From contig MFLP01000030.1 of the NCBI GenBank assembly GCA_001781555.1, positions 16,164-54,424 of the forward strand: a DNA stretch of 38,261 nt. The letters run 5' to 3'. The notes beneath the pieces were generated by a model. The model was not told the DNA's origin and searched no databases. It saw only the letters and a program-made list of their open reading frames with translations. Source of the DNA: Candidatus Kaiserbacteria bacterium RIFCSPHIGHO2_12_FULL_53_13. Lineage in GTDB: Bacteria > Patescibacteriota > Minisyncoccia > Phycocordibacterales > UBA2100. How positions within the stretch are numbered: the first letter of the stretch is position 1; the number at the start of each line of letters is the position of its first letter. A program made the translations under genes and the position numbers. Shown one piece after another: positions 6,755 through 9,257 of the stretch.

Positions 6755-7009
6755 GGGGCAGGGGAGAGTGCAAGAAGAACAGCATTTGTAGATTTATTGA
6801 TGCCTTCCCCTTTGGTTTGGCAGGGAACTGGAAATAAATTTTATTCTGGAATATTGAGTCGTTATAATACTTCCAACTTCGTTTTAATTGTTCCGACACT
6901 TTATTTAAATCAGCAGTCATCAGAGGAAGAGAGAAGTGTCAAATCGGCTAAACGAGATTGTGGCGTAATAATATTAATACAACGTCGCACAATATATCTT
7001 TTACGCGGG

Positions 7010-7026
7010 TAGCTTATGCGACATAT
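7010..7026. repeat. Left copy of a perfect 17-bp inverted repeat (tagcttatgcgacatat)
   Basis: Exact reverse complement of 7726-7742. Lies 38 nt beyond the stop of the 214-aa gene. Confidence 0.95.
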
Positions 7027-7034
7027 CATATTAT

Positions 7035-7052
7035 TTACTTATATTTAAGTAA
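7035..7052 (-). terminator. AT-rich hairpin downstream of the 214-aa gene (TTACTTA-n4-TAAGTAA)
   Basis: 7-bp stem with a 4-nt loop, 12 nt after the stop codon. There is no clear U-tract, so this is a weak terminator call. Confidence 0.3.
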
Positions 7053-7064
7053 TCAGATAATGGC

Positions 7065-7709
7065 TTAAGAACGTAAGACACGTAAGGGCTTGCGGCTTTT
7101 ATAGAACTCCTCAAACGTCTTCCAGCTCATAAGGGTTTGCTTTTGCCCGAGCCCCCTCTTCTTTTTCTGGACTAGCTCATTTAGCTCGCTCTGATTAATA
7201 TCTTCGTTCATCTGAAGAAATATGATTGGATATGGCAGTAGGTCTGACTGCGAGTATTTAGCCAGTTTAAGGTTCAGGCATCCCCCAATATTTTTGAGCG
7301 AACTGGCATAAAACACGTCTACACAAAATCCATCCTTGCCATCATATACAAAGAAATCAGCACGAGTCCTGTGGTCATCTGTGTAGAAGTATTCTCTGTG
7401 CACAAATTCTTTCCCGAATTGTTTGCACAACAGTTCGTATACATTTTTCTCTAGTATGTGGGCGCGTTCATTTATCGTATGCGCACGTTTTGAGCTATGG
7501 GCGCCTGTTCGCAAATCATGTTCACTTCCTATGTTGAGTTGTTTACGAAGCGCGACAAGTCCGCCAAAACGACGCTCGGCAGTTTTAGCTCTGGGTAAAT
7601 AAGGACACTCATCAAATTCTGTTGCTGTCGGGTACCTATGGTTCTCCTTATAAAAACGATCTAATCCATCTCTTATCCGCTCCATGGGCCACGTGAGACC
7701 TTTTGCCAT
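7065..7709 (-). CDS. Hypothetical protein: N-terminal homing-endonuclease-associated repeat (HEAR/HNH_repeat-like) plus restriction-endonuclease-fold-like core
   Basis: Residues ~8-58 (ERIRDGLDRFYKENHRYPTATEFDECPYLPRAKTAERRFGGLVALRKQL) fit the HEAR consensus (...GrxPtxxEfd...Psxxtixr.FGsW..Al). The core EKNVYELL...RADFFVYDGKDGFCVDVFYASSLK resembles a PD-(D/E)xK / Vsr-like layout. Both matches are from memory of the consensus. Confidence 0.5.
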   Translation of the reverse strand: MAKGLTWPMERIRDGLDRFYKENHRYPTATEFDECPYLPRAKTAERRFGGLVALRKQLNIGSEHDLRTGAHSSKRAHTINERAHILEKNVYELLCKQFGKEFVHREYFYTDDHRTRADFFVYDGKDGFCVDVFYASSLKNIGGCLNLKLAKYSQSDLLPYPIIFLQMNEDINQSELNELVQKKKRGLGQKQTLMSWKTFEEFYKSRKPLRVLRS

Positions 7710-7721
7710 CGCTCAAGTATA
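7710..7721 (-). promoter_or_regulatory. -10 box abutting the 214-aa gene start, 4 nt from the right inverted repeat
   Basis: TATACT (7721->7716) - 6 nt (TGAGCG) - ATG (7709). Confidence 0.45.
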
Positions 7722-7725
7722 CCCT

Positions 7726-7742
7726 ATATGTCGCATAAGCTA
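7726..7742. repeat. Right copy of a perfect 17-bp inverted repeat (atatgtcgcataagcta)
   Basis: Exact reverse complement of 7010-7026. Lies 4 nt upstream of the TATACT box of the 214-aa gene. Confidence 0.95.
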
Positions 7743-7837
7743 TTTATGATTCTGTGGATATTCTCTGCTACTACCGTAAGATACATTTTCCTGGCACAAG
7801 CTTGGCTATAAACCCGTGGATGTCTGGCTTCTCTTTT

Positions 7838-8173
7838 TTAATAAAGAGAATTAAACGGGTCAACTTGAAACTTGATGCGACTGACGTTTTGTTCGCTGCC
7901 AGAGACTGTTTTTCCGGCTCCCAAGGATAGACCAACGACACTTACCTTACCTCCCCCTTCGACGTTCTTTCCTGAAATAACTGTAACCGCCACATCGAAA
8001 CTAATGCTGCCATTTTTATTTTTGTCGTCTCCTCGATTACTGTCCATGTGGTATTGCATCTGTCCATTTGTTCTCTCCGGAGTCTTCTCCTGCTTTGCGA
8101 TTGCGATATTGGCATTTTTTACACCTCTTTGTATTCCTACAAGTGTTTCCTCGATAAATTTATCTAGTTGCAT
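7838..8173 (-). CDS. Trypco2-like small protein (conflict-system-associated alpha+beta domain)
   Basis: N-terminal helix LDKFIEETLVGIQRGV. It is followed by ISFDVAVTV...GGGKVSVVGLSLGAGKTVSGSEQNVSRIKFQVDP. This mirrors the trypco2 pattern (...vElel.vavt....g.kvkfwvl.lga......s.thrikl.l.P), recalled from memory. Confidence 0.5.
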   Translation of the reverse strand: MQLDKFIEETLVGIQRGVKNANIAIAKQEKTPERTNGQMQYHMDSNRGDDKNKNGSISFDVAVTVISGKNVEGGGKVSVVGLSLGAGKTVSGSEQNVSRIKFQVDPFNSLY

Positions 8174-8183
8174 ATAGACACTT

Positions 8184-8564
8184 TTAATTAATATTTTCAG
8201 TAAATTTTGCAGCTATTTTTTTACGAAGCGTCTGTATTTTCGGATCATTACTGATTGACGCTGCTGTATCAAGTCTCTTTAAAAATAGCTCAAGTTCTTC
8301 AGGGGAACCCACTCCATATTTTTCAACCCACTTATCAACTTCATTCACAATTTGGTTGGCAACCTCTTTTGGTTTTAAAGATTCACCATCGTGCCATTGA
8401 GGGGATTTGCGGGTTAGAGCAATATCCCTTTCGAACACGTTTTCTCGCCTTGTTGCAGAATCGCCCGCGCTAGATATAGGTTGTAATTGGGCAGCTTTAA
8501 TGAGGCGGCCAATTTGTCTTTTCACACGTTCTTCCGGTCGAAGTCTTTCTAACCCCTTACCCAT
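8184..8564 (-). CDS. Hypothetical 126-aa predicted all-helical protein, first gene of a two-gene operon with the trypco2-like gene
   Basis: Clean ORF in the AT-rich island, 10 nt upstream of the next ORF. TGCTAACAT (extended -10) lies 6 nt upstream of the ATG. I recognise no family. Confidence 0.55.
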   Translation of the reverse strand: MGKGLERLRPEERVKRQIGRLIKAAQLQPISSAGDSATRRENVFERDIALTRKSPQWHDGESLKPKEVANQIVNEVDKWVEKYGVGSPEELELFLKRLDTAASISNDPKIQTLRKKIAAKFTENIN

Positions 8565-8579
8565 GGAAGCATGTTAGCA
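8565..8579 (-). promoter_or_regulatory. Extended -10 box abutting the 126-aa gene start
   Basis: TGCTAACAT (8579->8571) - 6 nt (GCTTCC) - ATG (8564). Confidence 0.45.
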
Positions 8580-8584
8580 CGGTG

Positions 8585-8597
8585 TATGATTAGCGCT
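8585..8597 (+). promoter_or_regulatory. -10 box abutting the transglutaminase-like gene start
   Basis: TATGAT (8585-8590) - 7 nt - ATG (8598). It lies back-to-back with the divergent -10 box at 8571-8576. Confidence 0.4.
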
Positions 8598-9257
8598 ATG
8601 GCCTACCGCAACAGATTAAAAGCCGTGCTCTCCCCCGCCGAGCGTAAAGTTTTTACTGAACTGAACACCGCGCAAAAGATACAAGATTATTTGGATTCCA
8701 TTCCAATTAATTTTGAGGTCAAGGGAGAGACTTATATGTCGTCGAGACGCGTCATTCGAAATCAGACGGCGCATTGCTTTGAAGGTGCTTTGTTTGCGGC
8801 GGCGGCGCTCGCGTATCACGGAGCGCGCCCTCTGCTCCTTGATCTGAGAACGATAGACGAGGATCAGGACCATGTCGTGGCATTATTCCGGCAGAATGGC
8901 CTTTGGGGCGCTATCAGCAAGACCAATCATCCCATATTGCGCTACCGCGACCCCGTGTACCGAAGCGTGCGCGAACTCGCGATGTCGTATTTCCACGAAT
9001 ACCTCTTAGATGACGGTAGAAAATCTTTGCGGGCATACTCACGGCCATTCTCCCTAACACGCTACCCGGTGAAAACATGGGTGACGGCGGAGAAGGACCT
9101 GCATTTCCTAGTTGAGGCGCTCGACAGCTCCCACCACTTCCCCATCGTTCCGGGAAAAACGATGCGATTGTTGCGCAAAGCATCGCGCGTTGAAACGAAA
9201 GCGATGAACATCGTCGAGTGGCCGGAGCTGAAGAAATCTAAGAGCCGCCCGAACTAG
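8598..9257 (+). CDS. Transglutaminase-like / papain-fold putative cysteine peptidase
   Basis: Cys in QTAHCFEGALFAAAALAYHGARP and His in QDHVVALFRQNGLWGAISKTN follow the C...H...(D/N) spacing of transglutaminase-like cores. Start ATG 8598 is preferred because TATGAT lies 7 nt upstream. The ORF-track start at 8571 would sit 6 nt from the divergent gene. Confidence 0.5.
   Translation: MAYRNRLKAVLSPAERKVFTELNTAQKIQDYLDSIPINFEVKGETYMSSRRVIRNQTAHCFEGALFAAAALAYHGARPLLLDLRTIDEDQDHVVALFRQNGLWGAISKTNHPILRYRDPVYRSVRELAMSYFHEYLLDDGRKSLRAYSRPFSLTRYPVKTWVTAEKDLHFLVEALDSSHHFPIVPGKTMRLLRKASRVETKAMNIVEWPELKKSKSRPN

Follow-up and report, generated by a model that had tools for sequence, protein, structure and literature searches.

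An AT-rich segment of a Kaiserbacteria genome as probable foreign DNA beside a predicted dif site, with a candidate minimal mobile element bounded by dif-arm-like repeats

Chromosomal dif sites are known for attracting selfish DNA; examples are the cholera-toxin phage, gonococcal islands and the resistance modules of Acinetobacter. To our knowledge, all documented dif hitch-hikers either borrow Xer or use a DDE transposase. The dif sequence of Escherichia coli, GGTGCGCATAATGTATATTATGTTAAAT, reads GGTGCGCATAA-TGTATA-TTATGTTAAAT (PMC3025954), and insertion sequences of the IS1202 family, the 'dif-site hunters' of the ISAjo2 type, insert beside dif and pdif sites by means of DDE transposases (PMC10132070). 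Here we describe a 38,261-nt stretch of DNA from Candidatus Kaiserbacteria bacterium RIFCSPHIGHO2_12_FULL_53_13 (the window), in which an AT-rich segment at positions 6755-8597 holds a dif-like 28-bp site and three minus-strand genes for proteins of 214, 111 and 126 residues (p214, p111 and p126). On balance, we favor the view that the segment is foreign accessory DNA gathered against the dif-like site of the chromosome, made up of two unrelated units and not of one three-gene system. Much more tentatively, we propose that one of these units, p214 with its bracketing repeats (the p214 cassette), represents an unrecognised class of minimal mobile element, with ends that mimic dif arms and a nuclease that homes the element to dif.

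The original prediction, made from the DNA letters, had described the segment as AT-rich and compositionally deviant, and both GC and tetranucleotide analyses confirm this. The segment has 41.5% GC, compared with 51.6% for the remaining window sequence, and is the lowest-GC 1843-nt stretch of the whole window (z = -5.9, relative to non-overlapping windows); its tetranucleotide distance (0.42) is the window's largest, other values being 0.218 +/- 0.020. By part, GC is 43.9% in the 214-aa gene, 42.0% in the 111-aa gene and 40.7% in the 126-aa gene, with 52.9% in the exonuclease gene and 52.5% in the 228-aa gene that flank the segment. The 310 nt of non-coding DNA noted in the original prediction are indeed an AT-rich intergenic region (6755-7064; 36.5% GC), though the dif-like 28-bp site inside it had been overlooked. 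All three predicted open reading frames (ORFs) are present as described, as is the perfect inverted repeat bracketing the 214-aa gene (17 nt, 100% complementary). That none of the three has a housekeeping identity is supported. None scores above the curated threshold in Pfam, NCBIfam, PHROGs or PADLOC.

The canonical form of the site, ATGTCGYAAAA-GATATA-TTGTGCGACRT, spans 28 bp, with arms that are complementary at 10 of 11 positions. Across 106 distinct loci without p214, conservation is limited to exactly these 28 positions, with background levels outside. The window copy, read on the minus strand from 7009 to 6982, is the sole match in the window and differs at four positions, each of them in the outer left arm. 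When metagenome contigs were scanned with the 19-mer core of the site, at least 120 matched, each with one copy; the site is single-copy per locus in more than 160 loci, and one copy is present in the 38-kb window. In more than 140 Paceibacteria loci it occurs once each and in the same slot between converging genes, the order of which is constant: FtsW-MurG-GltX-M23, then the site, then RNaseT/p120-L27-L9-Ctp. The spacing from M23 through the site to the next conserved gene ranges from ~0.1 to 6.6 kb, and the gap is filled by varied small genes that differ by genome, which has the look of an integration hot spot. By hand alignment, 14 of the inner 20 positions match E. coli dif, and genes for tyrosine recombinases lie 0.3-1 kb from the site in 7 of 120 loci (among the matches listed). 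Rfam gave no match at the site or locus.

The 28-mer is thus very probably the Paceibacteria dif site, that is, a predicted substrate of an Xer-type tyrosine recombinase, and its near-perfect arm symmetry would imply a single-recombinase Xer system. Such a site would act as a landing pad for integrative elements, as dif sites do elsewhere. We found no literature report linking dif or Xer with the candidate phyla radiation (CPR)/Patescibacteria; the 28-mer would be the first dif site described for Paceibacteria, a by-product of the proposal that p214 cassettes are unrecognised minimal mobile elements homing to dif. The position of the site is also consistent with a terminus. GC skew is higher to its left than to its right in 27 of 30 loci with p214 and in 8 of 10 without it (Wilcoxon p = 0.01). 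In the window, cumulative GC skew climbs to ~6.5-7 kb and then drops across the remaining 31 kb, and genes on both sides, including a ribosomal-protein operon at 26-33 kb, are directed towards ~6.5-7 kb; the rising-then-falling skew together with the converging genes implies that the window probably spans the replication terminus.

A DnaA-box-like 9-mer, TATCCACAG, is located on the minus strand at 7752-7760, just beyond the cassette repeat A, and over the p214 loci such boxes, with up to one mismatch allowed, are over-represented at ~780 nt upstream of the site, with 17 in one 500-nt bin versus ~4.5 expected. An origin of replication was considered for this reason and rejected, because the skew polarity and convergent genes are of the terminus type and the box lies outside the transferred DNA described below.

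Filamentous phages provide evidence on how the site is used. The 17-mer site core is present in 44 IMG/VR contigs. Three host fragments (L215, L222 and L225) carry a 5.4-5.9-kb insert with a canonical site at one end and a hybrid site at the other, in direct repeat, which is the signature of Xer-exploiting elements. The insert in L215 is a filamentous phage (inovirus), because it encodes a Zot-like assembly ATPase and a G2P-like rolling-circle Rep, and free viral contigs of 4-6 kb carry an attP-like version of the site with one degenerate arm. Two full dif-like sites in direct repeat, the hallmark of integrative mobile elements exploiting Xer (IMEX), are found at the prophages of all three fragments. 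The CPR inovirus genomes are ~4.6-5.9 kb long, and were seen both integrated (L215, 2202-7640; also L222 and L225) and as free contigs (L188, L193 and L209). The last prophage gene of L215 (6994-7521), beside the hybrid site, encodes a DUF2726/REase-like PD-(D/E)xK protein in a position and orientation like those of p214; homology between the two was rejected (hhalign probability 0.3%).

Other DNA also occupies the slot. In L016 (6671-10822; also in L017), from a Parcubacteria GW2011_GWA2_51_10-like genome, the dif slot holds an island with an 84-aa gene, a p126 homologue and genes for an S24 peptidase, a Y-family polymerase (umuDC-like) and a tyrosine recombinase. Beside the integrase, the sequence TTCGTACAATATAT is similar to the dif right arm and centre in inverse orientation, and neither p214 nor the canonical site is present in the L016/L017 island. 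In L008, from a sister lineage with an integrase in the place of p214, no canonical dif-like 28-mer was found in the 8.6 kb examined; an almost perfect ~40-nt palindrome at ~7495-7535, GATATCAACGATTCTATACG GT CGTATAGAATCGTTGATAT, contains the GTCGTATA arm core.

The anatomy of the p214 cassette ties it to the dif-like site. The repeat next to the site, A' (ATATGTCGCATAAGCTA), reproduces the dif left arm together with 4 nt of the centre, being identical to ATGTCGCAAAAGATA at 13 of 15 positions. Repeat A, on the other side of p214, is the exact inverse of A' and resembles the dif right arm (TTATGCGACAT versus TTGTGCGACAT). The 12-mer core of the inverted repeat occurs without mismatch just at the two repeat arms in 38 kb, a uniqueness that led us to reject a genome-wide promoter motif. 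The arrangement recurs: an inverse of A' upstream of p214 matches at 13 or more of 17 positions in 20 of 41 loci (null 0.9%) and at 15 or more in 12 loci, and some repeat variants are common to both arms within one genome. At occupied loci the outer half of the arm abutting the centre is degenerate (...CGCGYAAAA), and 15 nt beyond this arm there is a near-canonical left arm (A'). The cassette abuts the AAAA-side arm of dif, always in one orientation, and in all p214 loci showing the site, the latter sits 9-240 nt downstream of p214 on the same strand.

p214 was found in 41 species, in the slot FtsW-MurG-GltX-M23-p214-variable-p120-L27-L9-Ctp, and none of these loci has p111 or p126. The site is present in at least 38 of the 41 (33 exact 19-mers and 5 with one to three mismatches); two more have a diverged copy, and in one case the contig is too short. 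The reverse does not hold, in that p214 is present in 3 of 98 site-bearing loci with enough upstream sequence (~3%, among the matches listed). The synteny across 41 species had suggested a class-wide core gene, and a fork trap of the Tus-Ter or replication terminator protein (RTP) type was also considered for the site and p214; both were rejected, as 95 of the 98 loci have the site without p214. About 195 close homologues, with 54-85% full-length identity, come from Kaiser-, Taylor-, Lloyd-, Giovannoni-, Vogel-, Campbell- and Nomurabacteria, and a profile search returned 577 clusters (50% identity) at E <= 0.001, so that the earlier description of this gene as an orphan was wrong. None of the distant relatives carries any annotation, and no p214 relative was found in the IMG/VR viral contigs.

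Comparison of p214 with its hosts reveals a mismatch in relatedness. The closest p214, in L018, is 83% identical to that of the window, whereas the L018 GltX, M23, MurG, FtsW and L27 proteins are just 44, 35, 41, 42 and 51% identical to the window's. For the most related hosts (MurG 66-68%, L27 76-81%), p214 identity is just 58-67%. When p214 identities are ranked against those of the host proteins, the correlation is ~0.2 and in most cases falls short of significance. In a DNA alignment, the window and L018 agree at 74.7% over a 763-nt stretch that begins at repeat A (7743) and runs to the right arm of dif (6984), with no similarity outside. As judged from this comparison, a compact repeat-gene-repeat-dif unit has moved between distant hosts. 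The L018 locus has 40.7% GC and its p214 copy 36.6%; an L018-like donor would explain why the window p214 is AT-rich for its host.

The features of p214 itself point to a nuclease-like protein. The AlphaFold model (predicted local distance difference test score, pLDDT, 83) has a helical N-terminal domain and a C-terminal alpha/beta domain, for which Foldseek retrieved the Can2 nuclease domain, Bax1, BstEII and BspD6I (probability 0.98-0.99), with the R2 endonuclease domain, XPF and McrC as further top matches. The C-terminal domain is thus predicted to have a PD-(D/E)xK restriction-endonuclease-like core fold. The homing-endonuclease-associated repeat proposed in the original prediction is less firm: PF18780 (HNH_repeat) matches the window protein below threshold (E = 0.022, 15.5 bits with a cut-off of 26, residues ~10-50), although 28 of 34 p214 family members also match sub-threshold, with a best E of 1.3e-4; the proposed restriction-endonuclease-like core stands on the structural comparison. 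Searching the p214 profile against sequences of solved structures gave no match. Identity across the class is 44-85%, and 49 residues are invariant, including D117, D130, K147, K150, H103 and R104. Upstream, a TATACT hexamer is spaced 6-8 nt from the ATG in relatives as well, and p214 has no Shine-Dalgarno sequence, which suggests that the p214 mRNA is leaderless and that its promoter travels with the cassette; a generic promoter scan did not flag the TATACT box.

A mechanism that would link these features is recognition by p214 of the arm sequence T(G/A)TGCGAC, found in dif as well as at either end of the cassette. Such recognition would target the cassette to dif, or hold it there, by cutting unoccupied sites, and the degenerate abutting arm and displaced left arm may protect occupied ones; alternatively, p214 would be the element's own end-and-target-binding nuclease. 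We rank such a nuclease-driven dif-targeting element first, an Xer-mobilised module with p214 as cargo second and a domesticated dif factor third.

Several observations weigh against the first-ranked proposal or its premises. GC at third codon positions (GC3) of p214 broadly tracks host GC across loci, implying long residence in most lineages and rare movement, and in a population survey 24 of 24 contigs carry the cassette arrangement, so that no empty allele is seen within the species and nothing is visibly moving at present. No target-site duplication flanks the repeats in the window or L018; the left junction lacks the left-arm-plus-centre expected of Xer-mediated (IMEX-type) integration, the 17 nt left of A matching an arm at 3 of 11 positions and not forming a left arm with central region; and the cassette ends are half-sites. 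Together, the missing duplication, the left junction and the half-site ends mean that no known mobility mechanism fits cleanly; when Xer integration and target-duplication models were fitted to the junctions by hand, none fitted. p214 has no DDE, HUH, serine or tyrosine transposase domain, though terminal inverted repeats are present, which places the cassette outside insertion sequences as classically defined. The Foldseek E-values of p214 are weak (4e-3), and catalysis is uncertain because the canonical (D/E)xK lysine is replaced by phenylalanine (D130-V-F); K147 or K150, both invariant and located on the helix that follows, may take its place. With respect to the site, the terminus position rests on local skew and gene orientation, which are mutually confounded, there is no Xer gene in the 38-kb window, and in the register of Kono et al. 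(positions 7-12 versus 17-22) the site has four complementary pairs, their requirement being more than four.

Appreciably less likely than a nuclease-driven element, in our assessment, is that the cassette is an Xer-mobilised module resembling IMEXs or the Acinetobacter dif modules, with p214 as cargo (a toxin, a restriction-like defence nuclease or a regulator). The repeats are indeed copies of dif arms, the outer left arm of dif is degenerate at occupied loci, as in the attR of the inovirus prophages found there, and Acinetobacter offers documented cases of genes that lie between inverted Xer sites and shuffle from one replicon to another (PMC10132070). However, A and A' are, by our own reading, half-sites with no second arm at 6-bp spacing, the left junction regenerates no site with left arm, centre and right arm, and an inverted arrangement would yield inversion, not excision.

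We regard as improbable that p214 is a domesticated host factor acting at dif or the terminus (in Xer modulation, a block to phage integration or fork arrest), with the upstream repeat as its autoregulatory operator. In tus-TerB and rtp the site lies just upstream of the -10 box. The p214 repeat is likewise placed just upstream of a -10-like box, and the strong conservation of p214 with its 49 invariant residues, its presence in single copy and always at dif, and the tracking of host GC3 would all suit a resident function. A gene found at ~3% of dif sites (among the matches listed) is, however, dispensable, and neither the incongruence of p214 relatedness with that of its hosts nor the sharp edges of the transferred DNA is expected of such a factor.

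The second unit of the segment is the p126-p111 pair, which is probably co-transcribed. p111 has eight homologue clusters and p126 three. In L008-L010 of the sister lineage, the same slot holds a 127-aa p126 homologue followed by p111, with a tyrosine recombinase in the position of p214. p126-p111 with the upstream 120 nt is 74.8% identical in DNA to L008, the flanking housekeeping DNA being 66-75% identical, and the similarity stops exactly at the p111 stop codon. As the identity of the pair is about that of its housekeeping flanks, the pair appears to be an old acquisition, dating to a common ancestor with one sister lineage; it is AT-rich still in both lineages. The most distant p126 homologue (48% identical) is in the same slot, beside S24-peptidase, Y-family-polymerase and integrase genes and without p111. 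Distant p111 homologues are preceded by a 65-aa zinc-ribbon gene, not by the p126 family, and have as neighbours a serine recombinase, Y1 transposases and an MNT/HepT toxin-antitoxin pair. Outside the Kaiserbacteria slot, as at L011 (2253-3234) and L013 (5795-6330), a 65-66-aa CxxC...CxxC zinc-ribbon protein always precedes the p111 family, and may be its real functional partner; in L011 a 143-aa predicted membrane protein follows the p111 homologue.

The likening of the 111-aa product to a Trypco2 domain, as proposed in the original prediction, holds for its relatives more than for the window protein itself. PF19631 (Trypco2) does not match the window p111 at E <= 10, but 6 of 7 p111 homologues match weakly, the best at E = 0.0025 and all under the gathering score, so that p111 is at most a weak, distant candidate relative of the Trypco2/Pepco proteins. 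The latter are pre-assembled beta-barrels that are turned into pores by cleavage after a conserved isoleucine (bioRxiv 10.1101/2025.11.14.688446). p111 is similar in length (111 aa versus 117 aa), and likewise has an invariant isoleucine, Ile100, followed by a short, 11-residue conserved tail, its C terminus, SRIKFxVxPFNSxY, being nearly invariant, as well as mobile or conflict contexts. It differs in scoring sub-threshold and in that no trypsin-like or caspase protease and no STAND or vWA-MoxR partner is adjacent in the contexts seen. Neither a peptidase nor an NTPase is adjacent to p111 in the window or in L008-L015; the nearest peptidase among p111 contexts is an S66 LD-carboxypeptidase ~1.1 kb away in L011. 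A structure model of p111 (pLDDT 41) was unusable.

These distributions bear on the proposal, in the original prediction, of horizontally acquired defence or selfish cargo. Acquisition is upheld, and the 214-aa gene behaves as horizontally moving selfish DNA, but a single three-gene defence system is not upheld. Such a system, with a nuclease effector, a Trypco2-like co-effector and a 126-aa regulator, would accord with three adjacent AT-rich genes on the same strand, with the weak Trypco2-likeness of p111 and nuclease-likeness of p214, and with the finding that in Avs4 systems Pepco and PD-DExK effectors can stand in for each other as modules (bioRxiv 10.1101/2025.11.14.688446), yet it is very unlikely given that the three genes occur together only in this species, that p214 is found in 41 species without the other two, that L008 has p111 and p126 with an integrase instead of p214, that p111 and p126 part ways in more distant contexts, that the DNA common with the distant host L018 ends at repeat A and so leaves out p111 and p126, and that no PADLOC model matched and no sensor NTPase or protease partner is present (in PADLOC-DB v2, nothing for p214 or p126 and one negligible match for p111; E = 0.023, 30 aa).

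Equally poor in our view is the prospect that the 28-bp element is not a recombination site but a bidirectional terminator, a small-RNA element or the operator of another protein: its place between convergent genes, a generic scan that calls the inner palindrome terminator-like and the lack of a nearby Xer gene in the window would fit, but sequence-specific conservation ends sharply at 28 nt and includes the non-pairing central 6 nt, Rfam has no match, terminators are not invariant across hosts of 27-59% GC, and the direct copies on either side of the inovirus prophages have one arm replaced, a hallmark of recombination inside the site. An RNA element encompassing the repeats (a 3'-UTR (untranslated region) hairpin, a small RNA or long-range 5'/3' pairing) was rejected on the same Rfam result and limit of conservation, and because repeat A lies upstream of the probable -10 box and thus outside the mRNA.

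The features of the segment are collected in Table 1.

Table 1. Features of the AT-rich segment, with positions in the window
Feature	Position	Strand	Description
p214	7065..7709	-	214-aa ORF; candidate N-terminal homing-endonuclease-associated repeat and predicted C-terminal PD-(D/E)xK-fold domain
p111	7838..8173	-	111-aa ORF; weakly Trypco2/Pepco-like small protein
p126	8184..8564	-	126-aa ORF; no informative similarity; 10 nt upstream of p111
dif-like 28-bp site	6982..7009	-	11-6-11 with inverted arms; reads CCCGCGTAAAA-GATATA-TTGTGCGACGT
Right inverted repeat A'	7010..7026	-	sense strand ATATGTCGCATAAGCTA
Left inverted repeat A	7726..7742	-	sense strand TAGCTTATGCGACATAT
-10-like hexamer TATACT	7716..7721	-	6 nt 5' of the p214 ATG; read from sequence
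Whole mobile unit (A, p214, A', dif)	6984..7743	-	delimited by DNA similarity to the distant host L018
AT-rich spacer, dif site to exonuclease gene	6755..6981	none	relatives carry a NUDIX gene in this place

A NUDIX remnant was looked for in the spacer, and none was detected. On the other side of the segment, the flanking 228-aa gene (8571-9257, plus strand), labelled transglutaminase-like in the original prediction, has no Pfam or NCBIfam match and encodes conserved Cys (AHCFEGA) and His (DEDHV) motifs; several Kaiserbacteria-like genomes also have it beside the dif slot. Translation probably starts at M10 (8598), given that DNA in common with L008, which has no such gene, extends over the first ~30 codons. 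In the population variant L185, only a 52-aa ORF stands in its place.

If the proposal for the p214 cassette is correct, a 0.76-kb element that mimics dif arms and encodes a restriction-enzyme-like protein would be a new solution to dif targeting, and p214 could then yield a compact nuclease with specificity for a long site. The 28-mer itself is a likely dif/terminus marker for a large class of uncultivated, reduced-genome bacteria, and as such may be useful in orienting and closing genome bins, in finding filamentous prophages and in studying CPR chromosome segregation. The locus also illustrates that what looks like an AT-rich 'island of orphans' may be a composite assembled around a very small non-coding landmark.

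Comparison with the known systems clarifies what is shared and what is different. Like the Xer dif sites of E. coli and B. subtilis, the Paceibacteria site has 28 bp with two 11-bp inverted arms and a 6-bp AT-rich centre, is single-copy per locus, lies at a local skew switch and gene convergence, and is an attachment site of filamentous phages. Its arms are far more symmetric (10/11), suggesting a single recombinase as for XerH, XerS or XerA, and the outer arms are unrelated to those of known dif sites. With homing endonuclease genes, such as those of the PD-(D/E)xK class (e.g. I-Ssp6803I) and the PF18780 enzymes, p214 shares a small nuclease gene with a homing-type repeat beside a long conserved sequence, and a sporadic, host-incongruent distribution in which empty sites are common in relatives; terminal inverted repeats are, however, unusual for such genes, and the flanking homology between donor and recipient is here too low for classical repair-mediated homing. 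IMEXs (CTXphi-type phages and the gonococcal genetic island) and the Acinetobacter pdif modules resemble the cassette in placing foreign DNA at dif, with dif-like bounds and a degenerate arm next to the element. Two full sites flank both of these kinds of element, in direct repeat for IMEXs and in inverted repeat for pdif modules, whereas the p214 cassette has inverted half-sites and a left junction without a left arm, and so falls outside the IMEX definition. In layout the cassette also resembles the IS1202 family, the members of which are also bounded by terminal inverted repeats and inserted in one orientation immediately outside one dif or pdif arm in many hosts. The IS1202-type elements are 1.5 kb long, encode a ~450-aa DDE (TnsB-like) transposase, make 5-bp target duplications and lie 5 bp from the XerC arm; the p214 cassette is 0.76 kb long, encodes a ~214-aa PD-(D/E)xK protein, has no duplication and directly abuts the arm, with ends that are themselves copies of it.

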